NCBI GenBank assembly: GCA_964434715.1
Contig: CAYSWC010000002.1
Location: 10,609 to 74,608, forward strand
Source: an uncultured Candidatus Saccharibacteria bacterium
Lineage (GTDB): Bacteria; Patescibacteriota; Minisyncoccia; UBA6257; 1-14-0-10-40-38
Direction: 5' to 3'
Length of the DNA: 64,000 nt
Every line of letters begins with the position of its first letter. Within the stretch, counting starts at the first letter, position 1. The notes under the pieces were generated by a model. That model did not search any database, had not been told where the DNA came from, and saw only the letters and a program-made list of their open reading frames with translations. This document shows positions 41,462-57,600 of the stretch, piece by piece. A program made the translations under genes and the position numbers.

Positions 41462-41755
41462 TTAGCGAAAAATCAAGTCTTTAATCCGCTGGGCTTCTTC
41501 GCGCACGACCTCCGAATCATAGTCGCCGGCGTGAGCAGTGGCGCCTTCGTAGACCGGCTTTTTCTGATCCAGATGCAAGTTAAAGGTGATAATATCTTTA
41601 TCCTCTTTGAGATAAATATGAAAACGCGGATAATCCCCTCCCAAAGGCCGGACACAGTTAAGTTCTTGTTTATCGGTATAGCCCAAAGGCCGATAGCCAA
41701 TCCGCCGCACCAAATCGTGCAGATTATATTTTTGATTGTAGATTTTGAAGGTCAT
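41462..41755 (-). CDS. hypothetical protein
   Basis: 97-aa ORF. Its start overlaps the stop of paralog 1 by 4 nt (ATGA), implying co-translation with the array. Confidence 0.5.
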   Translation of the reverse strand: MTFKIYNQKYNLHDLVRRIGYRPLGYTDKQELNCVRPLGGDYPRFHIYLKEDKDIITFNLHLDQKKPVYEGATAHAGDYDSEVVREEAQRIKDLIFR

Positions 41756-43419
41756 AAAACTTCAGCGTTATAACACTGTTCGCAGTAGACGATCTCCGGC
41801 CGGCCGGGGGCGTAGGTTGTTTTGATTGGTTTTTTGCAACGGTTGCAGATTCGGTCGAAAATTTTCATGGGACCGCGGCGGCGGATGCGATCCGCATGAC
41901 GGCAGAAGAAACACCGACGCGGAATCGACAGAATCATGCGGCGATAAAACTCGAGCTCCGACCGGATAAGCCGATAGTTGCGGCCGCAGGAGATACATGC
42001 AAGAACCTCGTTCAGTATAGAATCGGGCACGTCCTTGATGTGATCGGGAATCTGCTCGGGGCTCATCGTTTCCTTGCCGGTTGTCATCTGTAGTTTATCC
42101 TCCCAACGAAAACCCTGCGCGAGCGCCGCCTCTTTTGTCATCGGCAGATTCTCCTGCCCTATAGTTTCGTTGTACGCGAAGAGCGCAAGCGCAGGCGGGA
42201 AAAAAAGCCCGTATTCCCCTTGCTGTTTCAACTCCTCTATTATGTGCGCGCGGATCTTTTTATATTCATCCTCGGAATAACGTCTGTTCAAAATTGCGTA
42301 TTCCGCCTTTTTGATGCCGTCACAGCCAATACAATATTTACTGCCATGTGTCGCCAGCGAATACTCCACATATTGGCAGTTTTCAACCGCCCAGCCAGCG
42401 ATGTTCCGCGAGCTAAAACCCGACGCCACCGTCTCAAGCAATAATTCAGAACTCCGGCCGTGACCAATAAGATCGTAAGCATCCTTCGCGAGCTTCACCG
42501 AAAAAGCGTTGCTGACATTCTCACAATACGACAGCTCAAACGCCGCGTGACAATTTTTGGATTCAAAGATATAGTCGCCGTCCACGTTCACACTTTTCAA
42601 GTTACTCGTTGCGCGCCGCGGGAAACGAAGCGAGAACTCTTCAAAGCGCTTGCGGAACTCTTCCGAGGCGCGCCAACTGCCTAAAATGCCGGCTACGCAC
42701 CGGTGGTATTCCTCCTTTGAGAACGCTTCGTTTAAAAAATGATGCTTTTGGTGACGAAGGTTCACACAACCGAAACAATTCTGGAGGCCTGTACCACTTA
42801 TAAGAAACGCCGAGTCAAGGCACTCTATCGCGTTCTGCGCCCAAAGCACGCCTGCGCTGTTGTGAACACCCACACCCTCATAGATCCGTTCGGATTCATC
42901 GACGTAATAACTGTCATAAACGTCGCGGCTCTTGATAAGGCCGCGGGAATAAGCACAATTTTCGTTTCCGGTACCGGAATTCGCGACAAGGTAGCAATCC
43001 TTGTTGCCGCCTGAAAAGTTTTCGTAATGGCTATTGACGCTCGGAAGCACACCGCTCCGATAGAGCGCGTACTTTGGAACTGCGCGTACGAGTACTTGGA
43101 GTTGTTCAAAAAACGGCCGCTTCAAATCATAGTCCCTGCCGTAAGCGAATGGATCCCATTTGTCCGAATACCAGCAATCTGGACAATAGACGGTGTAGGA
43201 CGCTTTTGGATGGTACATTGAAACAATGGATTGCGAACAAAGATCACATTTTCGGTTGTAAAGTCTAAATTCATTGCGAAATGCCGCCCGCCGCTTAAAC
43301 CGGCAATCAGGACACAAAACCGGCGTCGGCACTCCCATTTTTTGATAAAAGGAAAAATCATCCGGCGCGATGGCGAACTGATTTTTACAATTCTGGCAAA
43401 TTTTGATTTCTTGATTCAT
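41752..43419 (-). CDS. cysteine-rich four-zinc-ribbon protein, array paralog 1 (subtype B)
   Basis: From MNQEIKICQNCKNQFAIAPDDFSFYQKMGVPTPVLCPDCRFKRR to ...CNRCKKPIKTTYAPGRPEIVYCEQCYNAEVL. The start at 43419 is set by alignment with the other five paralogs; the ORF track extends to 43503. Confidence 0.75.
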   Translation of the reverse strand: MNQEIKICQNCKNQFAIAPDDFSFYQKMGVPTPVLCPDCRFKRRAAFRNEFRLYNRKCDLCSQSIVSMYHPKASYTVYCPDCWYSDKWDPFAYGRDYDLKRPFFEQLQVLVRAVPKYALYRSGVLPSVNSHYENFSGGNKDCYLVANSGTGNENCAYSRGLIKSRDVYDSYYVDESERIYEGVGVHNSAGVLWAQNAIECLDSAFLISGTGLQNCFGCVNLRHQKHHFLNEAFSKEEYHRCVAGILGSWRASEEFRKRFEEFSLRFPRRATSNLKSVNVDGDYIFESKNCHAAFELSYCENVSNAFSVKLAKDAYDLIGHGRSSELLLETVASGFSSRNIAGWAVENCQYVEYSLATHGSKYCIGCDGIKKAEYAILNRRYSEDEYKKIRAHIIEELKQQGEYGLFFPPALALFAYNETIGQENLPMTKEAALAQGFRWEDKLQMTTGKETMSPEQIPDHIKDVPDSILNEVLACISCGRNYRLIRSELEFYRRMILSIPRRCFFCRHADRIRRRGPMKIFDRICNRCKKPIKTTYAPGRPEIVYCEQCYNAEVL

Positions 43420-43546
43420 TGATTTTTGTCCCGCCGCTGGCGGGATCCTCGATTTTGTAACCCCTCGATAAACTCGGGGACAAAATCGGGACAGTTTTGG
43501 CACTTTCTAATTTCTGAACTCATCTTACTCGCGAACCGAGGTTTCC

Positions 43547-43945
43547 TCATAAAAATAACAAAAATTGACGTGCGGTAACAATTTTGATTCCGTCGTATCC
43601 ACGCAGATCAAGAAGGTGGCGGTCGCCGGAAACAATAAAATGCGCCTGTCCGGAAACAGCGCATTCAACGATCTTATTATCGGTCGGGTCGGCCTTAACT
43701 GCCTTGAGAAGAGTTTTAGGTTCCCCGATATAGGAATGAAGCGTTATTATTTCCAAAAATTCGTTGGTATCGTCGTCCGGGAAATGAAACTTATTCTTTA
43801 AACGTTCTTCAAGTTCTCGCAATATTGCCGTAGAAATTAAAAGAGTAAATTTTCCGTCAAGTCCGGCCTTGAGCACTTCATACGGTGCGCCTTTCCAGAA
43901 AAGAGCCGAGATGAAAATATTTGTATCCAAAACAGCCCTAATCAT
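43547..43945 (-). CDS. PIN-domain toxin (VapC-like)
   Basis: MIRAVLDTNIFISALF and later acidic residues (ELEERL, DDTNE, DNKIVECA), typical of PIN family toxins. Confidence 0.75.
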   Translation of the reverse strand: MIRAVLDTNIFISALFWKGAPYEVLKAGLDGKFTLLISTAILRELEERLKNKFHFPDDDTNEFLEIITLHSYIGEPKTLLKAVKADPTDNKIVECAVSGQAHFIVSGDRHLLDLRGYDGIKIVTARQFLLFL

Positions 43946-44105
43946 TTTTTAGGACATCGGATTGACGGATGCCTCTCTTGCGCGCAAATTTCCTCCCCTC
44001 TGCCGCGAGGGTTTCGAAACGCTTAAGAGTGCCAATGATTCTGATTTTTGCCTTCAACTGCTCAACCTCGGTATTCAATTTCCTTATAAGAGTTTGGGTT
44101 GTCAT
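43938..44105 (-). CDS. putative antitoxin (55 aa), not in ORF track
   Basis: Hand-translated as MTTQTLIRKLNTEVEQLKAKIRIIGTLKRFETLAAEGRKFARKRGIRQSDVLKND. Its stop overlaps the PIN start by 8 nt. Confidence 0.45.
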   Translation of the reverse strand: MTTQTLIRKLNTEVEQLKAKIRIIGTLKRFETLAAEGRKFARKRGIRQSDVLKND

Positions 44106-44132: not shown

Positions 44133-45872
44133 TTATACAACTTCCGCTTGATAACACTGCTCGCAGTAAACAATTTCCGGCCGATCGGGAGCGTAGGACG
44201 ACTGCATAATTTTGCCGCATTTGGGGCACGTCCGATCGTGAAGTTTAAGTACAATTGAACCAAGTTTCTTTCTCATATTTAGAAGCCGCAGGCTGTAATG
44301 CTCGGTGGGGAGCGCAATATTGAACCGGTGATGAAATTCAAGTTCCTGCCTCGTATAACGGAATTTTTTGCTGTTCTTGGTGTCAAAAATGATTTTTTTT
44401 AGAATTTCGTCCGATACGTCCTTAACGTCTGGCGGCAGATCGTGCGCAACTATTAATTCTCCGTCCACTTGCTGTTCCCCTTCGCTAACATCATTCACCT
44501 GATAACCATACTTGCTCGCCACTGCCACATCGTCGTATCCCACATAGGAGGTAGCGTAAGTAAGATTATAAGGAAATGGAGACAAGTGCGGGGGGAAGAA
44601 TTCGCCGTATTCCCCCTTATCGAACATCGCAGTTTTTATTTCGTCTAACTTCTTCCAGTATTCATCTTCCGAATATTGAACGTTAAAAATACAAAACGAC
44701 TTGTTCTTTAATCCAATACAGGCAAAACAATCGTGGCAATTAATGCAGCCATCACAATATTCCACACTCCGGCACATATCGCAGCCAACTGAAAAAAGAA
44801 TACGGAAGTTCTGCACGCCGCCATAGGTATCGTAGCAAAGTTCGGAACCGACTCCACCGACAAGATCTAGGGCATCTTTTACCTCAGTACCTCCCAAAGC
44901 ATAGGCAATGTTCTCCCCGCCTCTCACGTAAAAACTGGCATAGCAGTTCTTGCAGTTCTTGAGATAATCGCCGAAAGAGTTGATACTACGCTCATTGTGC
45001 GTCTCCTTGTAAATTGCGGATTTTTTCATCTCGGCGAACCGTTCGGCCATTTCCCGGAGGACGTCACGGTTTCCCAAATCTATTCTTTTGAGTTCGGCCA
45101 GATACTGTTCCTTGGTAAGCGGTTTGTTGAAAAAGTAGTACTTTTTGTGACGCAGATTTACACAGCCAAAACAATTCTGACAGTTTCGGCAATCATAGAG
45201 AAAATATGAATCAAGACAATTCTTGGAATATTCCACAAAGAAACAGCGGTGAAGTTCCGAGCTCTCAAAGCCTCCGTAACATTCCTGCGCATTATAGAGG
45301 GTGAGGCCTTCGAGACAGTTCTGCGTATTCATAAAGACGATGCCGTAGGCACAATCCTCGGCTCCATATGAATCAAAGACAAGATAACAATTTTTGAGGC
45401 GCGAGGATGAATTGGTGTAGTCGCTGTTTACATTAGTTGGATCAACGGTTAAGTTTGGTCTCGGCACTGAAAGCTGAAAGGCGCGATATTGTTCCCAGAA
45501 TGGACGCGTCGTATCGTAGCTCACGCCGTAGGCAAAGGGATCCCAGCCCTCACCAAACCAAGCTTGATGCTCGTAGATTTTAAAGAGCGAACCCGGCGGA
45601 TATGCCGAGATGATGGATTTTTCTGTCAGCGCAGAAGTGCCGTGAAATAGATTATAGCTGTTGACGAAGGCAAGTTTACGGCGGATTCGCTCGTGCGCTG
45701 AAAGCGTCGGCAGCGGTACGCGAATCTTTTTATAAAACTCAATATCCTCGGGACGGACATAAAATTTTTCTCCGGAAAAACGGCAAGTTCGCCACTGACC
45801 ACCGTTTTCATCGAGTTCCAGCTTGGAAAAATATTCGTTAAGCGCCTGATCAAATCGTGGGGTTTTGAACAT
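44133..45872 (-). CDS. cysteine-rich protein, array paralog 2 (divergent subtype B, three ribbons degenerate)
   Basis: The core is collinear with the family (NCQNCFGCVNLRHKKYYFFNKPLTKEQY, GEYGEFFPPHLSPFPYN). The last ribbon is intact (CPKCGKIMQSSYAPDRPEIVYCEQCYQAEVV). The other ribbons lack their Cys ligands. Confidence 0.75.
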   Translation of the reverse strand: MFKTPRFDQALNEYFSKLELDENGGQWRTCRFSGEKFYVRPEDIEFYKKIRVPLPTLSAHERIRRKLAFVNSYNLFHGTSALTEKSIISAYPPGSLFKIYEHQAWFGEGWDPFAYGVSYDTTRPFWEQYRAFQLSVPRPNLTVDPTNVNSDYTNSSSRLKNCYLVFDSYGAEDCAYGIVFMNTQNCLEGLTLYNAQECYGGFESSELHRCFFVEYSKNCLDSYFLYDCRNCQNCFGCVNLRHKKYYFFNKPLTKEQYLAELKRIDLGNRDVLREMAERFAEMKKSAIYKETHNERSINSFGDYLKNCKNCYASFYVRGGENIAYALGGTEVKDALDLVGGVGSELCYDTYGGVQNFRILFSVGCDMCRSVEYCDGCINCHDCFACIGLKNKSFCIFNVQYSEDEYWKKLDEIKTAMFDKGEYGEFFPPHLSPFPYNLTYATSYVGYDDVAVASKYGYQVNDVSEGEQQVDGELIVAHDLPPDVKDVSDEILKKIIFDTKNSKKFRYTRQELEFHHRFNIALPTEHYSLRLLNMRKKLGSIVLKLHDRTCPKCGKIMQSSYAPDRPEIVYCEQCYQAEVV

Positions 45873-47139: not shown

Positions 47140-48873
47140 TTAGACAACTTCTTGAAGGTAACACTTTTTGCAAAGAATATAATCTACTTCTTCTTTATGG
47201 TGTGGTGAATCAAACTCCGTACCGCATTTATCACAAATTCTCTTTACTAAATTAAATTCTTTAACCCAGAAGTTCAACTTTTCACCGATGCGGCAGAAAG
47301 GACATTTACGGGGTAAAGGTAAATTCATTTTACGCAGGAAATCAATTTCGAACTTAGTAATTTTGAAACCTCTAGAACATGTAGAGCAACCGATTACCTC
47401 TTCTAATATGTTATCCTCCGCGTCTTTTATATGGTCAGGTAAATCTGCCGATTTTTTCGTAATAGTGTATTCCCTGATGTCTGGTTCAAGCCACCGATAA
47501 CCTTTAGCTGCAATTTCTTCCCGTGATAACGGGAAAAACTTTGCTGCAATCGTCTCATTATAGGCATGAGGGCTTAATTCAACCGGGAAAAATTCGCCGT
47601 AGCGGTAAACTCTCCCCTTATTATCGGTATAAGGCACTTCATTCATATGTTTTATGATTTTCCTTCTTAATTCCCAAAACTCATCCTCCTTATAGCGCTT
47701 GTTTAAAATGCAATATTTCCCTTTCTTCGCAGACACGCAACCGAATTGATGGCTTCCCCCGAATGAATCCTTACAATATTCGGCGTGGTAAAGATCAATG
47801 CCGGAATCATGACAAAATTTTATTTCCGAAGAATCGCCGCCGACAACCCCGGAATCATAAGATAAGGCCAAATTCTGTCCCCACCCGGATATGTCATAAC
47901 AATCTTTGGTCGTTGGGTCAATCATTATCAGCAAGTATTTGGAATTTTCCGCTCCCTGCACCTCAAAACATTCTTTACAGTTCTTAGACTGATAAATACG
48001 GTTGCCGGTTGAATTGGTCACAAAATTTTCAAACCGAGGCATGGGCGGAAATTTTTTCCAATGCTCTTCGGCGAGTTTTTTAACCTCCTGATAAATTTTA
48101 TAGGAGCCCAAATCCCATTTTTTAATTTCCTTAAAGTATTCTTCTTTTGTATACGGTTTATTGAAAATGTAGTACTTTTTATTGCGTAGGTTAGCCGAAC
48201 CAAAACAATTCTGGCAATTTACAGATTCTCTCATAAAATAGCAGTCAAGGGATTCAATAATATCTTTAGAACCAAAGCAACGATTGCTCTTATACGCGTG
48301 CGTGAGATCATAACAGAATTCGCAGATGGCAAGAAGCGAACAGTCCACTAAGTTCTTGTTCTGATATAAATAAAACCCGTGATAGCAGTCTTCGTTAAAA
48401 TCAGCCCAGAAAAGAAGATAGCAATTCTTGAGATGACCGACGTAGTTGTGGTAACTTATATTCTCTCCGGTAAAGAAATCTAGCGATAATCCCATAACCG
48501 GCGCCTGATGCAATAGTTCATTGAATTGTTCAAAAAATGAGCGTGAAAAGTCATAGTCGCGACCGTACTCAAACGGATCCCATTTATCCGACCACCAGCA
48601 TTTAAAGCAGTAAACTTTATAGGGAGCATCTGGCGGGTACATTGAAATATTCTCCTTGCCGCATAAATCGCATTTGCGTTTGTAAAGATTGATTAAATTA
48701 AACCAAGCGAGCCGCCTCTCTAGCCGGCAGTTCGGGCAAAACGTCGGCGGCGGGACTTTTCCGCCAGAGGCGGATCCGCCTTTGGCAGAGATTTTTTCGT
48801 AGAAATTAAAATCCTCCGGTTCGATTACGAATCGCTGCTTACAATTCTGACAAATTTTTGATTCCTGATTCAT
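47140..48873 (-). CDS. cysteine-rich four-zinc-ribbon protein, array paralog 3 (subtype A)
   Basis: From MNQESKICQNCKQRFVIEPEDFNFYEK to ...CDKCGTEFDSPHHKEEVDYILCKKCYLQEVV. Closest to paralog 5. Confidence 0.8.
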   Translation of the reverse strand: MNQESKICQNCKQRFVIEPEDFNFYEKISAKGGSASGGKVPPPTFCPNCRLERRLAWFNLINLYKRKCDLCGKENISMYPPDAPYKVYCFKCWWSDKWDPFEYGRDYDFSRSFFEQFNELLHQAPVMGLSLDFFTGENISYHNYVGHLKNCYLLFWADFNEDCYHGFYLYQNKNLVDCSLLAICEFCYDLTHAYKSNRCFGSKDIIESLDCYFMRESVNCQNCFGSANLRNKKYYIFNKPYTKEEYFKEIKKWDLGSYKIYQEVKKLAEEHWKKFPPMPRFENFVTNSTGNRIYQSKNCKECFEVQGAENSKYLLIMIDPTTKDCYDISGWGQNLALSYDSGVVGGDSSEIKFCHDSGIDLYHAEYCKDSFGGSHQFGCVSAKKGKYCILNKRYKEDEFWELRRKIIKHMNEVPYTDNKGRVYRYGEFFPVELSPHAYNETIAAKFFPLSREEIAAKGYRWLEPDIREYTITKKSADLPDHIKDAEDNILEEVIGCSTCSRGFKITKFEIDFLRKMNLPLPRKCPFCRIGEKLNFWVKEFNLVKRICDKCGTEFDSPHHKEEVDYILCKKCYLQEVV

Positions 48874-48999
48874 TGGTTTTTATCACCCTACGGGTGATCT
48901 CTCATGCCTTCGGCAGACCTCCCGAAGGGATTGGCCGCAGGGAGACAGTTTTGACAGGTTTTATTTTCACTAGTCATTATTTTGTCGAATATTATGAGC

Positions 49000-49036
49000 G
49001 CTATGAAAGTTCATAGCACTATGACGCGTCATAGTG
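49000..49036 (-). terminator. double hairpin downstream of paralog 4
   Basis: gctatgaa-ag-ttcatagc at 49000-49017 and the perfect 20-nt palindrome cactatgacgcgtcatagtg at 49017-49036. Confidence 0.4.
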
Positions 49037-49044
49037 CCTCGATG

Positions 49045-50817
49045 TTAAACTACTTCGGCGTTATAGCACTGCTCGCAATAGACGATTTCTTTGCGTTCGG
49101 GGGCATACGAGGTTTCAAATTCGTTTGGGCAGTGGTCGGTGCCGTGAAAATGCGAAGCGCTATTCTGATAAATGCTATTTTCTAACTTATTACCAGTGCA
49201 ACCACATTTTCTATGCCAAAGTTTGAGAGGATTTCGCTGCTTTAATCTTTGGTAATGCCGACAGTTAGGACATAATCGAGGAATAGGAATGCCGACTGTT
49301 CTTAAAAATTGAAGCTCCGCCGGTATAATTCTAAAGGCGGTGGTACACTGCTCATTGCACTTGCCTTCATGGGCACAACTAATAACCTCATTCAAAATAT
49401 TATCCTCAACATCATTGATATTTTGAGGTAGTTCGGAAAATGCTTTTGTTATTTTATAACTCTTCGTATCTGGCTCCCGCCATCTAAATCCTAGCTCTAC
49501 TGCTCTTTCTCTTGTAAGCGGAAAATGTTCTTGCGCAACAGTCTCGTTGTAAGCAAAGGGAGAAATTTCCGGAGGGAAAAATTCGCCGTAGTTATACGCA
49601 TGTCCCTTACCGTCGGTGTAAGTCACTCTCTTCATCTGATCTATAATTTTAGAAACAATCAATTTATACTCTTCTTTAGAATACTGTTTGTTCAAAATAC
49701 AGTATTCTTTCTTGCGCAGCCCAATGCAACCAAAAAGATAAGCTGAATTGTAACAATCGTCCGAATAAGATACATCGTGTGAGTAGTACACTCTAGTAAT
49801 GAACGCTACTCGGTTCAAAGCAAAAGCGCTAAGCGCTTCATAGACAAGTTGTGAGCCGACTCCTACGTGATCAAGGTCGTAGCCATCCTTTGAATCCTGA
49901 CCGCCGTAGAAAACGTAATGGAGGTTTTCGGCATCTTCAATTGAGAAACAGACTCGGCAATCCTTGCTATTTTCTATATCATCGCCGGTTGAATTAACAA
50001 CGTTCCTCATCCAGGCATACTTTCGAGGATACCTAAGCGCATGCTCATGAAATTTATCTCTAAACTTCTTAAAGTTATCGTATAATCCTAAATCCATATC
50101 TAATAGCGCTCTTTCGTAATCTTCTTTAGCATATTGTTTATTGAATATGCAGTAAGTTTTATTACGCAGGTTTACGCAACCGAAGCAGTGTTGGCAATTG
50201 CGACAGCCGATCAAAAACCATGAATCCAAACATTCCTCCGAATAAAGACTAAAATACACTCGGTTGCATTTTCTCAAATGAAGAGATTCGTAACACTGCT
50301 CGCTATTCCATAAAAAATCAGTATCAAAACAATCTTTTAGATAGATGCACTGGCTCGCATAGGCAACGTTCTCATAATGGTGACCGCCGAAAACTAGATA
50401 AGCATCTTTAAGATGAAGACCCCAGTTGGTATAATCGCTATTCACTGCAAAATCGAAATAAAGGGCTCTCCGGGGAACAGCACGAAACAGATCAGCAAAT
50501 TGTGCAAAGAAAGGCTTAGAAAAGTCATGGTTTTGAGCGTAGCTTAATGGATCCCATTTATTAGACTGGTAACACTCGGTGCAATGCACTGTAAACGGGC
50601 TATTCGGGGCGTACATCGTGATGATGTTTTTGCGACACAACGCGCAGGTTCCTTTATAGAGCGCTCGCTCATTTCGGAAAACCATGCGGCGAATCATCCG
50701 ACACTCCGGACACCAAGTCGGCGGCGGGACTTTAATTTTTTCGTAGAAAGTAAAGTCTTCGGGTTCAATCGTGAACTGAACCTTACAATTCTGACAAATT
50801 TTTATTTCTTGACTCAT
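49045..50817 (-). CDS. cysteine-rich four-zinc-ribbon protein, array paralog 4 (subtype B)
   Basis: From MSQEIKICQNCKVQFTIEPEDFTFYEKIKVPPPTWCPECR to ...HCPNEFETSYAPERKEIVYCEQCYNAEVV. Confidence 0.8.
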   Translation of the reverse strand: MSQEIKICQNCKVQFTIEPEDFTFYEKIKVPPPTWCPECRMIRRMVFRNERALYKGTCALCRKNIITMYAPNSPFTVHCTECYQSNKWDPLSYAQNHDFSKPFFAQFADLFRAVPRRALYFDFAVNSDYTNWGLHLKDAYLVFGGHHYENVAYASQCIYLKDCFDTDFLWNSEQCYESLHLRKCNRVYFSLYSEECLDSWFLIGCRNCQHCFGCVNLRNKTYCIFNKQYAKEDYERALLDMDLGLYDNFKKFRDKFHEHALRYPRKYAWMRNVVNSTGDDIENSKDCRVCFSIEDAENLHYVFYGGQDSKDGYDLDHVGVGSQLVYEALSAFALNRVAFITRVYYSHDVSYSDDCYNSAYLFGCIGLRKKEYCILNKQYSKEEYKLIVSKIIDQMKRVTYTDGKGHAYNYGEFFPPEISPFAYNETVAQEHFPLTRERAVELGFRWREPDTKSYKITKAFSELPQNINDVEDNILNEVISCAHEGKCNEQCTTAFRIIPAELQFLRTVGIPIPRLCPNCRHYQRLKQRNPLKLWHRKCGCTGNKLENSIYQNSASHFHGTDHCPNEFETSYAPERKEIVYCEQCYNAEVV

Positions 50818-50832
50818 GAATTTTTGTCCCCC

Positions 50833-51435
50833 TTATATCGGGGTTTTCCCGCGCTTTATTGCGAACTCGTTTTGAGGATACATTACGCCTCTACGGATAA
50901 AAAATGCTCCCGCGATAGCGTGAACCAAGGCATTTAAGAATACATCTTGCCACAGAAAGAAAAGCGCCAGCGAAATAAATCCCCACAACAAGGTAACCGG
51001 AATTTTCACCTGCCAGTATTTTGGCTGGAAAAGGTGACTCAAGGAATAAGGCGGAACCACGAGTATCACGATAAAAAAGAACGAAAGTGGACCATAAAGG
51101 TAGTAAGCAATCGAAGTCATGGTGAGCTGTTGAATCAGTGCCGAAAATGTATAGAAAAGTCCGAAACGGCCAAGTATGACAAAAATAGCAACGGCTACCC
51201 CAATAAAAGAAAATATCGAAGCAAGGCGGAAATTCCACGGGAAGGAACGTTCTACGGCGTAAAGCAGATACTGGCTAAGAACGATTGAGACAAGAAGACC
51301 GATATGGACAACAGCTCCGCGGAAGAGTGTACCGGCACGGTACTCTGGGAAAAAACGAATCACCGCAACCACTAATAGGATAGGGAGTATATAAGCGAAG
51401 AGCCAACCGCCGAGCGTAGGGAAAATCATATCCAA
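50833..51435 (-). CDS. polytopic membrane protein (unassigned)
   Basis: 200 aa with about six hydrophobic helices. Sits 15 nt upstream of paralog 4. Confidence 0.5.
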   Translation of the reverse strand: MDMIFPTLGGWLFAYILPILLVVAVIRFFPEYRAGTLFRGAVVHIGLLVSIVLSQYLLYAVERSFPWNFRLASIFSFIGVAVAIFVILGRFGLFYTFSALIQQLTMTSIAYYLYGPLSFFFIVILVVPPYSLSHLFQPKYWQVKIPVTLLWGFISLALFFLWQDVFLNALVHAIAGAFFIRRGVMYPQNEFAIKRGKTPI

Positions 51436-51496: not shown

Positions 51497-51853
51497 TCAA
51501 GAAAAAAATCTGAAAAGCCATAGAACTGCTGAAATGATAAACATTAGCAGCAAAGTTTTGCTAACGGCTCCGCGGGGAATCTTGATTCCGAAGTATTGCT
51601 CTAGATTGCGGCGGATGAACGAATCCCTGACTGCCTCTCCGCTATTGCACTTTTTAAGGAGCACATCCTCTACCATAGTAAGCGGACAACGCTTCCACCA
51701 AGCCAGAAAAGCAAGAGTAAGAGCGAGCAAGATTGTCTCAATTGCGCCGTAAAACAGAGACGCCCACTGGATAATGAAACCTACGAGCAGTGCAGCTATC
51801 CACAACCAGTGAATCCAGAAAACGGTGCGCGCCATCAGCCAGTACCTATCCAC
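51497..51853 (-). CDS. small membrane protein, DUF2784-like
   Basis: GTG start preceded by a strong SD (aagggaggg). WKRCPLTMVED motif and three TM helices. Confidence 0.5.
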   Translation of the reverse strand: MDRYWLMARTVFWIHWLWIAALLVGFIIQWASLFYGAIETILLALTLAFLAWWKRCPLTMVEDVLLKKCNSGEAVRDSFIRRNLEQYFGIKIPRGAVSKTLLLMFIISAVLWLFRFFS

Positions 51854-51915
51854 TGATCCCTCCCTTTTTTAGATTTCTAGGTTCTAAGATGGGATTATAA
51901 GGTATCCAGGCGTAG

Positions 51916-51966
51916 TTAGTCAAAAATCGTTTGGCAGTTTTGACAGATTCTGGTTTCGCTATTCAT
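51916..51966 (-). pseudogene. 16-codon relic of the 5' end of a seventh array paralog
   Basis: Reads MNSETRICQNCQTIFD then stop, homologous to the MNPETKTCQNCKNQF starts. It is preceded by the same 40-nt hairpin element that precedes paralog 5. Confidence 0.65.
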
Positions 51967-51970
51967 AATT

Positions 51971-52010
51971 CATAAATCTTATTCTAATGTTCTTAAGAAC
52001 ATTAGAATGA
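51971..52010 (-). repeat. array-associated 40-nt hairpin element, copy 2
   Basis: cataaatcttattctaatgttcttaagaacattagaatgat, with a 12-bp stem attctaatgttc/gaacattagaat. Lies 2 nt after the paralog 5 stop. Confidence 0.8.
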
Positions 52011-52012
52011 TC

Positions 52013-53743
52013 TTAAACTACTTCTTTAAGGTAACACTCCTTGCATAATATTTTCGGGACTTCGGATTCGGTGTAGCTGGTTTCAAATTCAGCGCCGCAT
52101 TGATAACAAGTGCGCTTGACCACGCTTAAATTTTTTACCCAGAGAGAAAATTTATCGTTGATGCGGCAAAAAGGACAGCGTCTAGGGAGGGGCAAATTCA
52201 GATGACGGAGGAAATTCAGCTCCTGATGAATAATCTTAAAGCCCCTCGGGCAGGTGGTGCATCCGATTACTTCTCCCAAGATGGTGTCGGGCGCGTCCTT
52301 AATATGATCCGGCAAATCCTCGGGCTTCTTGGTAATGGTATAGGTGCGTAAGTCAGGCTCGCGCCACCGGTAACCATTTTTTAGAGTTTCCTCCTTGGTC
52401 ATCGGGAAAAAATTATTAGCCAAGGTTTCATTATAAGCATGCGGGCTTAAATCCGGCGGGAAAAATTCTCCGTATTGATAAACAATTTTTCTGGTTTCCC
52501 GCTTCTCGCTTCCGACTTCTGAAATGTAAGGCATATCATTCATATGCTTGACGATTCGTTCGCGGAGCTCATTAAATTCCTGCTCTGTATAGCGTTTATT
52601 GAAAATAGCATAATCGCCTTTTTTCATACTAACACAGCCAAAGAGGTTGGAACCGCCGGTAGCGGCTTTTGAGTATTCGGCGTTATAGAGATTAAGTCCT
52701 GATTCCTGACAAAACCGCAAATTGGCGGCGGCTTCGCCGGAAACACAGCATTCGTAGAGTAAATTCACATTGTTGCCCCAGCTGGTGTAATCCCAGCAAT
52801 CTTTGATGGGCGGCAGATAGGTCATGAGCAGAAACTTTGAATCTTCAGCGCCAATCACTTCAAAACACTGTTTACAGTTTTTGGCTTGGAAAACATAGTT
52901 GCCGGTGCTCCTCGCCGACATTTCGTCAAATCGGGGTTTGGGAGTAAATTTTTTCCAGTGCTCTTCGGCGAGCTTTTTAACTTCTTGATAAGTTCGGTAC
53001 GAACCCAAATCCCATTTTTTAATTTCTTTAAAGTATTCTTCCTTGGTATAGGGTTTGTTAAAAATATGATATTTCTTGTTGCGCAAATTAGCCGAAGCAA
53101 AGCAATTCTGACAATTGGCGCAGTCTTTTAAAAAGTAGCAATCAATGGATTCGGTCACCTGACTCCTAAGGCCCACTCCCCGGCTGACTTTATAAACATT
53201 CATACAGTCATAGAGGAGCTCGTTGGAGGCGGCGAGCGATGAATCCATAACCGATTTATTCTGGATCAGATAAAAACCGTAAGCGCAGTCTTCGTTAAAA
53301 TCAGCAAAGAATAAAAGATAAGAGTTTTTAAGATGGCCGGCGTGGTGGTTATAGGGCGAGTGCCTCGCCGTATCTAAATCAATGGAGAGCCCGAGCAGCG
53401 GCGCCGTATGCAGGAGTTCATTAAATTGTTCAAAAAAGGGGCGGGAAAAATCATAATCACGGCCGAAACTAAACGGATCCCAGCCGTCACCCCACCAGCA
53501 CTGGGGACAATAGACATTATAAGGAGCTTCCGGCGGATAAAAAGAGACTTTCTCCTCGCCGCAAAGGCCGCATTTGCGCTTGTAAAGATAGTGGATATTG
53601 AAAAAAGTGAGGCGTCTTTGAAGACGGCATCGCGGACAAAAAGTCGGAGGTGGGACTTTGATTTTTTCGTAAAAGTTGAAATCTTCCGGTTCAATTACGA
53701 ACTGATTTTTGCAATTCTGACAAGTTTTTGTTTCTGGATTCAT
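52013..53743 (-). CDS. cysteine-rich four-zinc-ribbon protein, array paralog 5 (subtype A)
   Basis: From MNPETKTCQNCKNQFVIEPEDFNFYEKIKVPPPTFCPRCR to ...CYQCGAEFETSYTESEVPKILCKECYLKEVV. Confidence 0.8.
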   Translation of the reverse strand: MNPETKTCQNCKNQFVIEPEDFNFYEKIKVPPPTFCPRCRLQRRLTFFNIHYLYKRKCGLCGEEKVSFYPPEAPYNVYCPQCWWGDGWDPFSFGRDYDFSRPFFEQFNELLHTAPLLGLSIDLDTARHSPYNHHAGHLKNSYLLFFADFNEDCAYGFYLIQNKSVMDSSLAASNELLYDCMNVYKVSRGVGLRSQVTESIDCYFLKDCANCQNCFASANLRNKKYHIFNKPYTKEEYFKEIKKWDLGSYRTYQEVKKLAEEHWKKFTPKPRFDEMSARSTGNYVFQAKNCKQCFEVIGAEDSKFLLMTYLPPIKDCWDYTSWGNNVNLLYECCVSGEAAANLRFCQESGLNLYNAEYSKAATGGSNLFGCVSMKKGDYAIFNKRYTEQEFNELRERIVKHMNDMPYISEVGSEKRETRKIVYQYGEFFPPDLSPHAYNETLANNFFPMTKEETLKNGYRWREPDLRTYTITKKPEDLPDHIKDAPDTILGEVIGCTTCPRGFKIIHQELNFLRHLNLPLPRRCPFCRINDKFSLWVKNLSVVKRTCYQCGAEFETSYTESEVPKILCKECYLKEVV

Positions 53744-53783
53744 AAATCTCTTATTCTAATGTTCTTAAAAACATTAGAATGAT
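53741..53783 (-). repeat. array-associated hairpin element, copy 1
   Basis: cataaatctcttattctaatgttcttaaaaacattagaatgat, between the paralog 6 stop and the paralog 5 start codon (included). Confidence 0.8.
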
Positions 53784-53786
53784 TAC

Positions 53787-55535
53787 TTAGACTACTTCGG
53801 CGTTATAACACGCTTCGCAGTAGATAATTTCTGGACGGTCGGGAGCATAAGCGGTTTCAAATTCGTTGGGGCAATGATTTTGGCCGTGAAAATGAGAAAC
53901 GGTATTTTTATAAACACTCCCCTCTTTTCTCTTTTCACTTTCCTCTCCATTACAAAGGCAAGCGCGGTGCCAAAGTTTCCTCGGCGGCCGGAGGGCAATT
54001 TTTCTAAGATACCGGCAATGAGGACATAATCTTGGAATCGGGGCGTTAAATCGCCGGTAAAGATCAAGTTCGGGTTTGACGACATTGTAATTCCGGCCGC
54101 ACTCGATACAGGCGAGCGCCTGATCAACAATTGAATCAGGCACGTCTTTAATGTTGTCGGGAATATCTGCCGGCTTTAAAGTTTCTTTACCAAAAGTTCC
54201 GGGGACGCGATCCTCCCATTTCAAGCCCAGTTTCAAAGCCGCCTCTTTTTTAAGCGGCATATAAATTTGCCCTTGAGTTTCGTTATAGCCAAAAGGAGAA
54301 AGTTGGGGCGGAAAAAATTCGCCATACTCCCCGGTTTTCTTCATCTGTTCAATGATTTTCTCTTTTAAAGCCAGATAATCAGTCTCACTATACTTTTTAT
54401 TCAAAATCACATATCGTCCCTGCTTAACCCCAACACAGCCAAAAAGATTTTCACTGTTATGACAGCTGTCGCAGTACATTAAATGAGAATTGTCGTAGCT
54501 TAGATGACTGAAAAGCACATTATAAGAATGGATAAGAGCGTGAGATTCATAGACCAATTCAATCGCAAAACCGTAGTGATACGAATCCATACTATGCTTT
54601 ACATCCGGACAAACAATCCCATATTTAGTGTCTTCGGCTTTATCGGCGTCAAAAACCTGATGAACATTTTTAGAGTCACTGATAACATTACCAGAAACAT
54701 TATTTGATCGTTCAATAATGGCAAACCGATGCAGAGCTTGCTCTTTAATCATGCCGAGATACTTGCCGTATAATTGTTCTCTCTCTTTAAAAGAACCGAG
54801 GTTAAATTCTTTTATTTTTTTAAGATATTCTTCTTTGGAGTACGGCTGATTAAAAAAATAGTAGTTTTTGTTTCGAAGGTTTGATGACATAAAACAGCTA
54901 GAGCATCCGCGGCAATCAAAGCAATAAAAGCAATCAGTGCTGTCGCGAAGCAGTCTTCCATATTGACAATGGTAAATGCGAAATGAATCGGTGCACTCGT
55001 AGCATAACTCTGCGCCTTCGCCGTTCCGATAGATTTCCATTGAATCTCTGGAAGCATTCCAGACGTTGGTGCAGTAAAGAAGATTTTCCGAATCAAAAAT
55101 GCCGAAGCAGAGATAACAGTTGCGGTTATTGCTAGAGTGATTGGTATATTCCGAATTGACGCTGTTTTTGGTTAAAAGGGCGATGCGCGGAACCTGAAGC
55201 TGGAGTTCTTGCCACTGCTCAAAAAACGGCCTTGAAAAATCAAAATCGCGGCCGTAATCCGACCCATTCCACTTGTCCGACCACCAGCAAGGCGGACAAT
55301 AGACTTTATATGGTTTATTGGGCGAGTAAATAGTTACCGTGCTTTTGCCGCAGAGATCACAATTCCGCCGATACAAGACCCGTTCATTCCGCCAAGCATA
55401 CCGCCGCCTTTGCCGGCAATCGGGACACCAAGTCGGCGCCGGCACGCTGATTTTTTCATAGAAAGAAAAGTCGTCCGGAGCGATGGTGAATTCTTGTTTA
55501 CAATTCTCGCAAATCTTTGTTTCCGAACCATCCAT
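53787..55535 (-). CDS. cysteine-rich four-zinc-ribbon protein, array paralog 6 (subtype B)
   Basis: From MDGSETKICENCKQEFTIAPDDFSFYEKISVPAPTWCPDCRQRRR to ...HCPNEFETAYAPDRPEIIYCEACYNAEVV. Confidence 0.8.
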   Translation of the reverse strand: MDGSETKICENCKQEFTIAPDDFSFYEKISVPAPTWCPDCRQRRRYAWRNERVLYRRNCDLCGKSTVTIYSPNKPYKVYCPPCWWSDKWNGSDYGRDFDFSRPFFEQWQELQLQVPRIALLTKNSVNSEYTNHSSNNRNCYLCFGIFDSENLLYCTNVWNASRDSMEIYRNGEGAELCYECTDSFRIYHCQYGRLLRDSTDCFYCFDCRGCSSCFMSSNLRNKNYYFFNQPYSKEEYLKKIKEFNLGSFKEREQLYGKYLGMIKEQALHRFAIIERSNNVSGNVISDSKNVHQVFDADKAEDTKYGIVCPDVKHSMDSYHYGFAIELVYESHALIHSYNVLFSHLSYDNSHLMYCDSCHNSENLFGCVGVKQGRYVILNKKYSETDYLALKEKIIEQMKKTGEYGEFFPPQLSPFGYNETQGQIYMPLKKEAALKLGLKWEDRVPGTFGKETLKPADIPDNIKDVPDSIVDQALACIECGRNYNVVKPELDLYRRFNAPIPRLCPHCRYLRKIALRPPRKLWHRACLCNGEESEKRKEGSVYKNTVSHFHGQNHCPNEFETAYAPDRPEIIYCEACYNAEVV

Positions 55536-55614
55536 ACCCTAATTATACCTTTTTTTTGATTTTAAAAAATCAAAAAAATTCCCCGCTAAGGAGGACTTGA
55601 TAATTATGCTATTT

Positions 55615-56082: not shown

Positions 56083-57600
56083 TTATATGAGGGGTTCTGG
56101 CTCCTTATCTCCTTTACCCTTGCTCTTTTCACCGCCTGCTTCGGCTGTTCCCTCACCCTTAGCCTTGCCTTCAATAATGGCCTTTTCCTGGGCGCTCCGG
56201 AGAATCGTCGCTTCTTCCTCTTGAATCAGTTTTTTAGCGGCATCAGCGGGAATAGTGTATTTCCTACGCGAAGTTTCAATAATATTTTCCCGATAGGATT
56301 TATGATTGGGCGGCAAAACCTTGAGCGTCTCGGCGGAAAACGGATCATAAGTATCGCCGTCAATAGTTATTTTGATATAAAACTCCTGCATGCCCAAATT
56401 AATCATATCTTTAACTTCAAAGATCGGCGCCATCTCGGGAGCGAGCTTTACCGCATCTTCGCCGCCCACTCGGAAAATAATGATACAGCCGGTATTACCC
56501 AAAACCGCGGCCTGCACCCGCGGAATTATCTGCCCGACATATTGGTGAGCGATGGTGAGGCAGAGCGCGTATTTGCGGGCTTCGGAGAGAATATTTTCAA
56601 AAGTCTCGGTAACCAAATTATGAAACTCGTCAACATAAAGATAAAAATCAATGCGCTTGTCCTCGGGCAACGAAGCTCGGGCCATACCGGCTTGCTTGAT
56701 TTTGGTGATAAAGATGGAACCCAAGAAACTGGAATTCTCCTCGCCCAAGCGGCCTTTAGAGAGATTAATGAAAATCAGTTTTTTTTCGTTTATGAGCTTA
56801 TCCAAATCAATCTTGTTTTCCTTCTGGCCGAAAATGTTCCGGAGGAGCGGATCGGATAAGAACTGCCCCAGTTTATTGACGAGCGGGATAATGGCATCAG
56901 TATCAAACTTTTCCGACCAATCGGCAAACTCAATAGCCCAGAAGCGCTTAACCATGTCGTCTTCAATATATTCAACCACCTTTTGACGGTAATTGCGGTC
57001 AGTAAGCATGGAGATCATGCCGCGCATAGTGGCGTGCGGATAATCCAAAAGCGCGAGACAAGTGAAACGAAAGACGTGCTCCAGACGCGGCGTCCAGTTG
57101 GCGCCGAACTGCTTTTCCATTACTTCAATCAGGCCCTGGGTTAATTGATGCTTAAATCCGGGATCAACATTAGCCAACGGATTGAAAGATACCGGATGAG
57201 CCATATCAGTGGGATCAATAATCACCACGTCTTGAATTCTATGCTCGGGAATAAAATTTAAAACAGCGTCAATCACATCGCCGTGGGGATCAATAAAACA
57301 GAGACCATGGCCGTAGGCAATATCCTGACGAATGAAAAGTTCCAAGAGCTTTGATTTGCCGACACCGCTCTTGCCGATGATATAGACATGACGGCGGCGA
57401 TCAACGCGTTTAATGCCGAAAATAAAGCGCTTTTCCTCCAAAGCGGCAATGTAGTTGGTCCGGCCGATAAAAGAAACTTCAACCGGATCAAGGCGGCCGT
57501 AGATGGGCAACTCCGGCGGCGGCGGCGCGTATCTAATTATTTGAACTTTTCCGGCTCGTGGCACTTTCTCAAGATGCCAATAATGCGAATCCAATGCCAA
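56083..57600 (-). CDS. soluble coupling-protein-like (TraD/VirD4/HerA-type) ATPase, paralog 2
   Basis: Collinear with 37744-39531: FGIKRVDRRRHVYIIGKSGVGKSKLL, DPHGD, LYVDEFHNL and TIAHQYVGQI. Lacks the C-terminal zinc ribbon. Confidence 0.65.
   Translation of the reverse strand: MALDSHYWHLEKVPRAGKVQIIRYAPPPPELPIYGRLDPVEVSFIGRTNYIAALEEKRFIFGIKRVDRRRHVYIIGKSGVGKSKLLELFIRQDIAYGHGLCFIDPHGDVIDAVLNFIPEHRIQDVVIIDPTDMAHPVSFNPLANVDPGFKHQLTQGLIEVMEKQFGANWTPRLEHVFRFTCLALLDYPHATMRGMISMLTDRNYRQKVVEYIEDDMVKRFWAIEFADWSEKFDTDAIIPLVNKLGQFLSDPLLRNIFGQKENKIDLDKLINEKKLIFINLSKGRLGEENSSFLGSIFITKIKQAGMARASLPEDKRIDFYLYVDEFHNLVTETFENILSEARKYALCLTIAHQYVGQIIPRVQAAVLGNTGCIIIFRVGGEDAVKLAPEMAPIFEVKDMINLGMQEFYIKITIDGDTYDPFSAETLKVLPPNHKSYRENIIETSRRKYTIPADAAKKLIQEEEATILRSAQEKAIIEGKAKGEGTAEAGGEKSKGKGDKEPEPLI

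Follow-up and report, generated by a model that had tools for sequence, protein, structure and literature searches.

Are short, near-identical elements that stand between tandem paralogs scars of the duplications that built the array, or sites that serve its genes? This question is raised by the locus described here, a 64-kb stretch of DNA (hereafter the window) that encodes on its minus strand six paralogous proteins of about 555-590 aa each, designated A3, A5, B1, B2, B4 and B6. According to the original prediction, the array grew by duplication of a B+A gene pair, a hairpin element and a 16-codon relic mark the junctions, and two membrane-protein genes replaced most of a seventh copy. We arrive at a different reading, which we hold to be moderately probable as a whole: the array would be old, the hairpin would be an operator, and the 16-codon ORF would be the 5' end of a lost gene.

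The coordinates of the genes confirm the order of transcription that had been proposed, namely B6-A5-(relic)-two membrane genes-B4-A3-MFS-B2-TA-B1 (Table 1), and the array adjoins a homolog of the VirD4/TrwB-type coupling ATPase. The order A3-MFS-B2 is syntenic with locus L082, a TATAAT box lies 6 nt 5' of the B6 ATG, and the first zinc-knuckle cysteines are missing from the N-terminus of B2.

Table 1. Features of the array, listed in the direction of transcription with positions in the window
Feature	Positions	Strand	Description
B6	53787-55535	-	Separate orthogroup; orthologs in L075 (70%) and L003 (67%)
Palindrome copy 1	53753-53780		ATTCTAATGTTTTTAAGAACATTAGAAT; operator-like, TG..CA (regB) type; mismatched once at the centre (U.G in the sense RNA)
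A5	52013-53743	-	A-clade paralog, A5 sublineage; nearest relatives P0002-4 (69-70% identity)
Palindrome copy 2	51981-52008		Perfect 28-bp dyad
Tandem duplication, 7 nt	51961-51974	-	TATGAAT/TATGAAT, read directly from the sequence
Relic 1	51916-51966	-	16-codon ORF MNSETRICQNCQTIFD plus stop; 5' fragment of a family gene
Sigma-70-like match	51894-51923	-	TTGACT-18-TATAAT, 11/12; best in the array
mem1	51497-51853	-	DUF2784 membrane protein; no homolog in 85 related loci
mem2	50833-51435	-	200-aa membrane protein; no Pfam match; no homolog in 85 related loci
B4	49045-50817	-	Separate orthogroup; orthologs in L012 and L013 (59%) and in L041
Relic 2	48889-48978	-	MTSENKTCQNC, then GC-rich hairpin leader; start 105 nt upstream of the A3 ATG
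A3	47140-48873	-	A-clade paralog, A3 sublineage; P0064 (81%)
B2	44133-45872	-	Divergent orthogroup; N-terminus M.SKTPQFDKALDE
Relic 3	43416-43523	-	MSSEIRKCQNC mini-ORF through conserved twin-hairpin leader; start 104 nt upstream of B1
B1	41752-43419	-	Separate orthogroup; orthologs in L010 (64%), L013 (62%) and L015 (60%)

A common element had been described after the stops of B6 and A5, and it is indeed found there. Its core is a 28-bp palindrome, ATTCTAATGTT(C/T)TTAAGAACATTAGAAT, which forms a 13-2-13 inverted repeat and whose two copies are identical at 27 of 28 positions; the sequence CATTCTAATGTTYTTAAGAACATTAGAATAAGA has exactly two matches in the 64 kb and none in 100 shuffles. Copy 1 lies 6 nt past the TAA stop of B6 and 9 nt 5' of the A5 ATG (53743), copy 2 lies 4 nt past the TAA stop of A5 and 7 nt 5' of the first ATG of the relic region, and both are followed by AAGA(GA)TTTATGAAT. 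As had also been described, the element leads into the ATG of A5 in the first case and into ATGAAT with a family-like ORF in the second. Aligned with one another, the two junctions show 64% identity in the final 60 nt of the coding sequence; identity rises to 90% over the 61 nt that begin at the EVV codons, take in the stop and the palindrome and end with ATGAAT, and drops to 57% in the 45 nt beyond. A literature search with the palindrome sequence returned no relevant publication, and Rfam, allowing E up to 10, gave chance-level matches only in the array, none of them at the hairpins or leaders.

The palindrome is by no means restricted to this array. The 28-mer of copy 2 occurs in identical form in 8 unrelated metagenome contigs, and a metagenome search with the pattern ATTCTAAYRTTCTN{0,4}AGAAYRTTAGAAT matched at least 120 contigs, from which 80 loci were kept. 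In these loci, 92 palindrome copies were counted, some contigs having 3-4 copies or copies that flank a regulator gene (L117, L095, L158). The zinc-ribbon family to which the six paralogs belong is present in 3 of the 80 loci and absent from 77, and a small ArsR/HTH_5 protein is encoded in 44 of them. The palindrome either lies 2-30 nt 5' of the start of this regulator gene, as in L091, L140, L154, L098 and L077, or coincides in part with the final codons and stop of that gene. Of the 92 copies, 77 have fully compensated arms (CA..CA is seen once and TG..TG never), and 76 have a self-complementary central dinucleotide. Palindrome and regulator subtypes co-vary: regA pairs with CA..TG palindromes, regB with those of the TG..CA type found in the window (8/10 cases, including 5 at gene starts without coding overlap), and regC-type regulators with ATTCGCGCGAAT sites. 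Regulator and family also meet in the same locus. In L102, a family gene and an orf97 homolog are followed by a window-type palindrome, then by 17 nt, TATAAT, 7 nt and the regB ATG, and, 7 nt after regB, by two family genes; L077, L082, L014 and L006 carry ArsR-like genes with their own palindromes within family arrays, and the A5 ortholog of L085 has a homologous palindrome past its stop. In the metagenome loci, the palindromes are followed by heterogeneous genes with no obvious regulon theme, and tblastn detected no regB homolog in the window and about 9 kb beyond its high end. An element so dispersed, linked to ArsR-type genes and mostly found without the gene family does not behave as the mark of a duplication junction.

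On the basis of this dispersal, of the linkage to a regulator, of the co-variation of subtypes and of the arrangement in L102, we regard a DNA operator, and not a duplication scar, as the most likely identity of the 28-bp hairpin. We infer binding, repression and promoter use as follows. A winged-helix protein of the regB subtype (ArsR/HTH_5-type, ~90 aa) would recognise the 13-2-13 repeat, and the likeness of the two window copies would be explained by the need for one regulator to recognise both. Copy 1 would act before A5, and copy 2 at the equivalent place before the family gene that formerly came next. Since a -10-like TAGAAT is present in each right arm, 7-9 nt before the ATG, the bound repressor would cover both the -10 region and the start of a transcript with a short leader or none. 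Metal sensing by these ArsR-like proteins is unsupported, the proteins being short and without recognisable metal-site motifs.

The 16-codon ORF that follows copy 2 was claimed as a family remnant, and we concur: its peptide aligns to positions 1-15 of the family HMM, is the top match among the non-family fragments of the array, and carries the N-terminal motif, for which shuffled sequence gave no orphan matches. None of the six paralogs stands out as its nearest relative, each matching it at 30-34 of about 50 nt. The doubled ATGAAT at its start is due to the 7-nt tandem duplication, and the first ATG of the doubled start reads MNYE and a stop. Judging from this homology and from a related locus, a family gene probably once followed A5. 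In L084, whose A5 ortholog is 70% identical and is the closest relative of A5 in the databases, an intact family gene begins 19 nt past the stop, with an N-terminus (MADSKKTCQNC) that bears no specific resemblance to relic 1. The proposal that the membrane genes replaced a seventh copy is supported in part. The intact gene of L084 and the restriction of mem1 and mem2 to this lineage speak for it, the absence of homologs from the 85 related loci marking mem1 as a lineage-specific arrival; on the other side, no C-terminal piece of a seventh gene and no further family remnant was found between A5 and B4. As to the order of deletion and insertion, we infer that relic 1 would be the surviving 5' end of the next family gene, the rest of which would have been lost when, or after, the DUF2784 and membrane-gene pair arrived. 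The incoming pair would have brought its own near-consensus promoter and Shine-Dalgarno sequence; the -35 hexamer of the sigma-70-like match overlaps the last codons of relic 1, and downstream of the match follow the Shine-Dalgarno sequence and GTG start of the DUF2784 gene. The 7-nt slippage duplication at the old start would be a sign of decay.

Relic 1 has company. Two more N-terminal fragments, relics 2 and 3, are present in the array beyond those previously described, and such fragments recur across genomes. This opens another possible origin for relic 1, as a former leader mini-ORF of B4 from which the gene became separated by insertion of the membrane-gene pair. Mini-ORFs with a family N-terminus do lie ~75-155 nt 5' of full-length family genes in many genomes (15 orphan mini-ORFs against 0 in shuffled sequence) and are present at 8 of 23 A-type genes; moreover, GGGGGACAAAAATTCATG just 5' of B4 resembles the leader 3' end GGGACAAAAATCAATG, and a C-terminal remnant of a seventh gene is missing. 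Nevertheless, the similarity 5' of B4 may be nothing but a Shine-Dalgarno sequence and an A-rich spacer, no mini-ORF was detected 5' of the nearest B4 orthologs, relic 1 is not nearer to B4 than to the other paralogs, and the full-length gene found directly after the A5 ortholog in L084 also argues for the loss of a seventh gene, and we regard the leader origin as unlikely, though not negligible.

Two broader proposals, equally doubtful, are that the N-terminal relics may be a conserved expression device and not debris, and that regA, regB and regC may form a Patescibacteria-wide regulatory circuit. In the first, a leaderless mini-ORF would copy the first 11-24 family codons and cross a GC-rich twin-hairpin leader that hides the Shine-Dalgarno-like GGCGGGA; it would end at an ATGA overlapping the true start, and by translational coupling the main zinc-ribbon gene would be served by ribosomes that initiate without a leader. 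Relic 1 would then be a stranded copy of the device. In the second, the three regulators and their matching palindromes would control arrays that adjoin the coupling-ATPase homolog. The TGA stop of relic 3 overlaps the B1 ATG as ATGA, and a stop that overlaps or abuts the downstream start is found in most relics of other loci as well; by contrast, relic 1 shows no such overlap: 62 nt separate its stop (51916) from the GTG of the DUF2784 gene, and that gene is equipped with a Shine-Dalgarno sequence of its own. Mini-ORF stops fall within -10 to +8 of the main ATG in 12 of 16 cases, an enrichment that is only suggestive because the ATGAAT start context almost forces a stop in two of three frames. 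The idea that relics are local duplicates of the 5' end of their own gene, as in a long target-site duplication, was rejected: the resemblance of a relic to its own downstream gene does not exceed that to N-termini taken at random from the family (mean fractional rank 0.46). Self-splicing was set aside for want of any support, and so was a programmed ribosomal bypass that would carry translation from the relic into the main gene. As a separate observation, a 30-nt element, (TCCGCCnnnGGCGGA)x2, is found in frame within A3 (SAKGGSASGG), in other genes and genomes, and as part of the leaders after N-terminal mini-ORFs.

Returning to the palindrome itself, a role in RNA has to be weighed against the operator that we favour. 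The hairpin might act between cistrons by ending or stabilising the upstream message or by masking the start codon of the next gene, with a secondary link to the ArsR-like protein. The folds are stable, with -12.6 kcal/mol (z -2.8) for copy 1 and -18.6 kcal/mol (z -5.0) for copy 2; the single substitution between the copies is accommodated on the sense strand as a U.G pair; in the predictions, the stems take in the stop and start codons, so that the stop-codon region pairs with the AUG region; and a perfect hairpin of at least 9 bp is present within 90 nt past the stop in 26 of 218 family genes. As an intrinsic terminator, however, the element is a poor candidate, with a 12-bp stem that contains 3 G-C pairs, the tail AAGAUUUAUG and no U-tract, and the terminator scan lists none at the site. 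The self-complementary centre also counts against RNA, where a loop would not need one, and the loop length is 0 in 17 of the 26 post-stop hairpins. Sequence conservation goes beyond pairing across unrelated metagenomes, copies stand 5' of regulator starts, and palindrome and regulator subtypes co-vary. Taken together, these features make a function in RNA rather improbable.

Still less probable, in our view, is that the palindrome is a REP- or MITE-like mobile or recombinogenic repeat that lies on both sides of A5 and with which the ArsR-like gene co-travels. This would agree with its dispersal over many contigs, several of which hold more than one copy (4 in L117, 3 in L149), with the copies that flank the regulator gene in L095 and L158, and with the larger near-identical repeat units of L108, L149, L127 and L146. 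It fits poorly with the presence of two copies only in 64 kb and with the regular spacing to start codons and -10 boxes; in addition, a non-exhaustive look beside the palindromes revealed no transposase or RAYT-like gene, and the regulator gene is found in 55% of the loci, a proportion that fits few sites per genome and not hundreds.

There remains the history of the array, which we addressed with a neighbor-joining tree of 205 family sequences and 100 bootstrap replicates. Of the two subtypes that had been distinguished, A is a clade and B is not. All A sequences, which have the C-terminus ILCKxCY in common, are monophyletic in 100/100 bootstraps. The C-terminus EIVYCExCYxAEV that defined "B" is carried by most of the family (124 of 205 members), and for each of B1, B2, B4 and B6 there are separate orthologs in other Patescibacteria genomes, at 50-70% identity, against 34-44% among the four themselves; "subtype B" is therefore not a clade. 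B4 and B6 are 42% identical, about as B1 is to B4 and to B6, and their common ancestor spans 180 of the 205 sequences in the tree. A3 and A5 are 64% identical, and they too are not each other's closest relatives: A3 groups with P0064, P0043, P0094 and P0081 (100% bootstrap) and A5 with P0002-4 (99%), the two are sisters in 0/100 bootstraps, and both have closer foreign matches (up to 81% for A3 and 70% for A5). The unequal divergence of the two pairs, 64% versus 42%, is incompatible with one duplication of a B+A unit, and between B4 and A3 no copy of the palindrome is found, a different palindrome and a different relic being located there. As judged from the tree, the six copies fall into no fewer than five orthogroups of ancient origin (B1, B2, B4, B6 and A), the last of them represented by A3 and A5, which come from two old sublineages. 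The pair duplication is refuted by the fact that paralogs 4 and 6 form no clade; what could still be said for it, namely the real order B6-A5 ... B4-A3, 90% identity across the 61-nt junction where the homologous coding sequence next to it reaches 57-64%, and the C-terminal insertion CxCxG...HFHG..HCPNEFET common to B4 and B6, weighs little beside the scatter of that insertion over several clades, the different orthogroups of B4 and B6, the foreign relatives of A3 and A5, and a palindrome spread over at least 120 unrelated contigs, and we judge the whole scenario extremely improbable. With ancient paralogs and a hairpin that is widespread and regulator-linked, the array is ancient and mixed, and did not grow by recent copying of a two-gene B+A unit.

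The protein family itself is specific to Patescibacteria, with over 6,000 homologs; throughout the phylum its genes commonly stand in arrays of divergent paralogs, 3 to 11 or more in number, and an orphan VirD4/TrwB-like ATPase habitually adjoins them. Pfam returned for the paralogs weak zf_Tbcl (treble-clef) matches at the termini and nothing else. The AlphaFold model (pLDDT 87.5) contains several treble-clef zinc ribbons and a beta-helix-like core; its comparison with the PDB by Foldseek gave no match at E < 0.03 and a faint likeness to left-handed beta-helix proteins. Very little has been established about how Patescibacteria control transcription. With its conserved sequence and its co-variation with a tiny ArsR-like protein in many metagenomes, the palindrome makes up, together with that protein, a directly testable candidate regulator-operator pair, and through this pair regulation is linked to a zinc-ribbon/beta-helix family that is very large and uncharacterised. 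The locus also serves as a corrective, in that near-identical short elements beside CPR paralogs should not be taken for duplication scars: the tandem array seen here is ancient and not recently amplified.

Repressors of the ArsR/SmtB family bind 12-2-12 inverted-repeat operators, e.g. SmtB at smtA, and CzrA. The regulator described here is likewise a small winged-helix protein with HTH_5/HTH_20 matches, and its putative site is a 13-2-13 inverted repeat, perfect or nearly so, that stands at promoters and, as in autoregulated ArsR/SmtB operons, precedes the regulator's own gene (L102, L091, L140, L098, L077). It differs by its half-site, ATTCTAATGTTCT instead of a TGAA/TTCA-type box, by the size of the proteins (88-100 aa), which are devoid of recognisable alpha-3N or alpha-5 metal sites, and by the unusual fact that the palindrome itself encodes the last codons of the regulator gene (ILMFLRTLE and stop; KTF and stop in regA). 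With REP elements, the palindromes share their short length, their intergenic position, often just past stops, and their dispersed and sometimes clustered occurrence; unlike REP, they appear to have a low copy number (two in 64 kb), and they have dyads that are perfect including the centre and an associated gene that encodes a winged-helix regulator and not a Y1 transposase, no RAYT gene being seen beside them. Rickettsia palindromic elements (RPE) are selfish palindromes inserted in frame into coding genes. The GC-rich 30-nt element in frame inside A3 is reminiscent of them, although it is much shorter. Finally, VirB2 pilin genes form tandem paralog arrays of 2-11 genes in Patescibacteria (PMC12102498). 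The proteins of the present array are not pilins but cytoplasmic-looking ~580-aa zinc-ribbon and beta-helix proteins, and neither virB4 nor T4SS core genes are present in the 64-kb window; nonetheless, as for VirB2, this family too is organised in arrays of divergent paralogs (here with 34-64% identity), and this array has a homolog of the VirD4/TrwB-type coupling ATPase as its neighbor.

The six minus-strand paralogs belong to a zinc-ribbon family that is restricted to Patescibacteria and comprises more than 6,000 homologs, every one annotated "hypothetical", and tandem arrays of 3–11 copies are the rule (79 genome loci). The gene order is as originally predicted, namely B6, A5, two membrane genes, B4, A3, MFS, B2, a PIN toxin-antitoxin pair and B1, where the number gives the place in the array and the letter the subtype proposed at that time. 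The proposal of two subtypes holds for A, whose clade has 100% bootstrap support, and fails for B, since the "B-type" C-terminus is the majority state of the family (124 of 205 members) and therefore defines no subtype. The derivation of the array from a duplicated B + A pair is refuted on the terms set for it at the outset, a tree lacking separate 3/5 and 4/6 clades: in a neighbor-joining tree of 205 family members, the common ancestor of B4 and B6 takes in 180 sequences, and A3 and A5 are sisters in 0 of 100 bootstrap replicates. A3 groups with P0064 (81%), P0043, P0094 and P0081 (support 100%) and A5 with P0002-4 (~70%; support 99%), all homologous family proteins. The A3-MFS-B2 block is moreover syntenic with L082, the contig encoding P0064. 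Pairwise identity is 64% for A3-A5 and 42% for B4-B6, the latter on par with B1-B4 (43.5%), B1-B6 (43.7%) and A3-B4 (42.8%). Furthermore, every paralog has orthologs of its own in other genomes (57–64% identity for B1, 50–59% for B4, 56–70% for B6 and 54–66% for A), and B2 is a member of a distinct cysteine-poor group. By tree and identities, A3 and A5 are different A sublineages, the paralogs are old and no gene pair was duplicated.

In the B2 orthogroup, whose N-terminus is M.SKTPQFDKALDE in many genomes, the first zinc knuckle and some of the later ones no longer have their cysteines; the orthogroup is nonetheless conserved across genomes. The AlphaFold2 model of A5 is confident (pLDDT 87.5, pTM 0.87) and predicts terminal zinc ribbons surrounding a solenoid-like core rich in beta strands; it has no PDB match with E < 0.03 and resembles left-handed beta-helix proteins (such as LpxD, GlmU) only faintly. 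As for neighboring genes, L082 carries a Fic/HTH pair at a place comparable to that of the PIN pair. More than 30 loci have a TrwB/VirD4-like coupling ATPase homolog (T4CP), 70–88% identical across genomes, beside the zinc-ribbon array, and DUF8128, CutA1 and a second paralog (42–46% identity) often accompany it; thousands of orphan T4CP homologs distant from virB4 are reported from Patescibacteria (PMC12102498).

Features of the array and its surroundings (window positions)
Feature	Position	Strand	Remark
Six family paralogs	41.7-55.6 kb	-	555-590 aa
B2	44133-45872	-	
A5	52013-53743	-	
PIN-domain toxin + small antitoxin	43547-44105	-	within array, between B2 and B1
T4CP homolog	56083-57600	-	
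Palindrome core, 28 bp	53753-53780 and 51981-52008		27/28 positions identical
Relic 1, MNSETRICQNCQTIFD*	51966-51916	-	aligns to family HMM positions 1-15
Relic 2, MTSENKTCQNCLPAANPF...*	48889-48978, ATG 48978	-	105 nt upstream of A3 ATG
Relic 3, MSSEIRKCQNC	43416-43523, ATG 43523	-	upstream of B1
Twin-hairpin repeat, 30 nt, [TCTGCCAAAGGCGGA][TCCGCCTCTGGCGGA]	48760-48789	-	in frame inside A3, encodes SAKGGSASGG
Perfect palindrome GCACTATGACGCGTCATAGTGC	49016-49037		after B4 stop
TATAAT box	55542-55547	-	6 nt upstream of B6 ATG
A/T palindrome TTTTTTGATTTTTTAAAATCAAAAAA	55551-55578	-	precedes B6 TATAAT box

The hairpin reported after the B6 and A5 stops is confirmed: the 64 kb contain two copies and no more, and 100 shuffles yielded none. 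The first copy does run into the A5 ATG and the second leads into ATGAAT and the relic 1 ORF, a 7-nt tandem repeat (TATGAAT TATGAAT) intervening before the latter. Each copy has AAGA(GA)TTTATGAAT behind it, forms a stable RNA fold from either strand and contains in the right arm a TAGAAT located 7–9 nt ahead of an ATG. Between the EVV codons and ATGAAT the junctions are 90% identical, against only 57–64% for the flanking homologous coding sequence, and this likeness is maintained by something other than shared age.

The role of the hairpin as a marker of duplication junctions is not upheld, as at least 120 metagenome contigs match ATTCTAAYRTTCTN{0,4}AGAAYRTTAGAAT in a pattern scan (chance expectation roughly estimated at <0.01) and the zinc-ribbon family is present in only 3 of the 80 loci kept. 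Among the 92 copies in these 80 loci, retained from the matches listed, the Y/R positions are perfectly compensated in 77 (51 CA..TG, 18 TG..CA as in the window, and 8 TA..TA), the uncompensated combinations CA..CA and TG..TG occurring once and not at all; 76 copies have a self-complementary central dinucleotide, and the exact window 28-mer occurs eight times in unrelated flanks. Related palindromes lie at like positions after the stop of an A5 ortholog (L085) and after family genes (L013, L058), with a doubly compensated change (AACATTCT/AGAATGTT versus AATGTTCT/AGAACATT). Of the 26 post-stop hairpins beside family genes, 17 are perfect palindromes devoid of a loop, which an RNA hairpin would not need.

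The palindrome is linked instead to a small regulator: 44 of the 80 loci kept encode an 88–100-aa protein with HTH_20, HTH_5 (ArsR) and MarR-type winged-helix matches, and the palindrome lies 2–30 nt upstream of the start of this gene or over its last codons and stop. The subtype regA (C-terminus ..KTF*) pairs with CA..TG palindromes and regB (..FLRTLE*) with TG..CA palindromes in 8 of 10 cases; the pairing also holds for palindromes that precede a gene start and so cannot owe it to coding overlap. The window palindrome read in frame gives ILMFLRTLE-stop, the regB C-terminus. Elsewhere the palindrome itself encodes the last codons and stop of ArsR-like genes, as ACATTCTAA for regA ..KTF* and as ..ILMFLRTLE* for regB (L095, L103, L108, L110, L113, L117, L136, L147, L149, L150, L158; L091, L098, L102, L140, L154). 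L095 and L158 have palindromes on both sides of the regulator gene, and each of the four copies in L117 has a TGTATAAT box ~20 nt downstream.

Several contigs join palindrome, regulator and zinc-ribbon family directly (L102, L077, L082, L014, L006). L102 presents, in order, a family gene, a homolog of window ORF 41462-41755, a window-type palindrome, 17 nt, TATAAT, 7 nt, regB, 7 nt and two family genes; L077 shares this layout with a variant palindrome, and L082, L014 and L006 harbor a third regulator type inside or beside family arrays, with ATTCGCGCGAAT-type palindromes ahead. No regB gene was found in the window or 9 kb beyond. TATAAT boxes stand 6–7 nt before the ATGs of B6, regB in L102 and regC in L082 and before an ATG in L084, the range being 6–8 nt when L027 and L047 are included, which suggests that leaderless or very-short-leader transcripts are usual here. 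The core TATGAC-NN-GTCATA of the post-B4 palindrome, which may be another operator class, precedes A-type genes as well (L086, L006).

Relic 1, predicted to be what membrane genes left of a seventh copy, is indeed the 5' end of a family gene, behind a putative operator, in line with its HMM alignment; replacement is one of two possible origins. A family gene probably once stood behind A5, and the membrane genes may have taken its place: L084, the closest A5 ortholog, has an intact family gene 19 nt downstream, and no homolog of the DUF2784 gene or its membrane-protein neighbor occurs in the 85 related loci. No C-terminal remnant of the lost gene survives, and relic 1 has no specific similarity to any present paralog. 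Alternatively, the membrane genes may have inserted behind a pre-existing mini-ORF. The best promoter-like site of the array (TTGACT-18-TATAAT, followed by a strong Shine-Dalgarno sequence) precedes them, its -35 hexamer overlapping the end of relic 1.

Mini-ORFs are indeed recurrent: a motif scan of related loci detected 15 orphan N-terminal ones versus none in shuffled sequence, nearly all with a full-length family gene ~75–155 nt downstream. Of 23 A-type genes, 8 are preceded by one. Most mini-ORFs have a stop that overlaps the main ATG or is adjacent to it, frequently in the form ATGA, and their break points group after CQNC, IEPE and FY, a CQNC break being followed by a conserved two-hairpin leader (TGTCCCGAT..ATCGAGGATCC..GGGAYAAAA). 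Relic 3 has 35 open codons across this leader (TGTCCCGAT..ATCGAGGATCC..GGGACAAAA), and its TGA overlaps the B1 ATG; the leader, which has no Rfam match, also follows mini-ORFs in L009, L014, L015, L027, L038, L041 and L054, where its stems covary. The second leader hairpin is part of a GC-rich twin-hairpin repeat, [TCCGCCnnnGGCGGA]x2, which is dispersed: it is the one inserted in A3 and is also found in unrelated genes and other genomes (L017 with four copies, L012, L006, L071, L073) and flanked in L006 by a 10-nt direct repeat. Downstream of relic 2 come GC-rich hairpins (-34.6 kcal/mol, z -3.5), which an A-rich spacer, GATAAAAACCA, separates from the A3 ATG. That relics are copies of their own downstream gene was rejected by similarity comparison; they may be debris or hot spots for these small repeats, or they may serve to couple translation as a functional device. 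In L003, L014, L015 and L038, the ETKT and CQNC of family-gene N-termini are separated by in-frame GC-rich inserts of the CTTCGACAAGCTCAG type (MNTETKT-LRQDSVSST-CQNC is one). One such insert, at L013 10001, gained a stop and an ATGA restart, splitting off the mini-ORF MNSETRILR*, which shows one route by which N-terminal fragments may arise.

The most economical reading of the hairpin is that of a putative operator of a regB-type repressor, which would bind the palindromes and repress, the promoters likewise being presumed to be in use; the two window copies would be alike because one protein must recognize both. A hairpin serving as repressor operator is a known kind of feature, and what is new is an example for an uncharacterized regulator in a poorly understood phylum.
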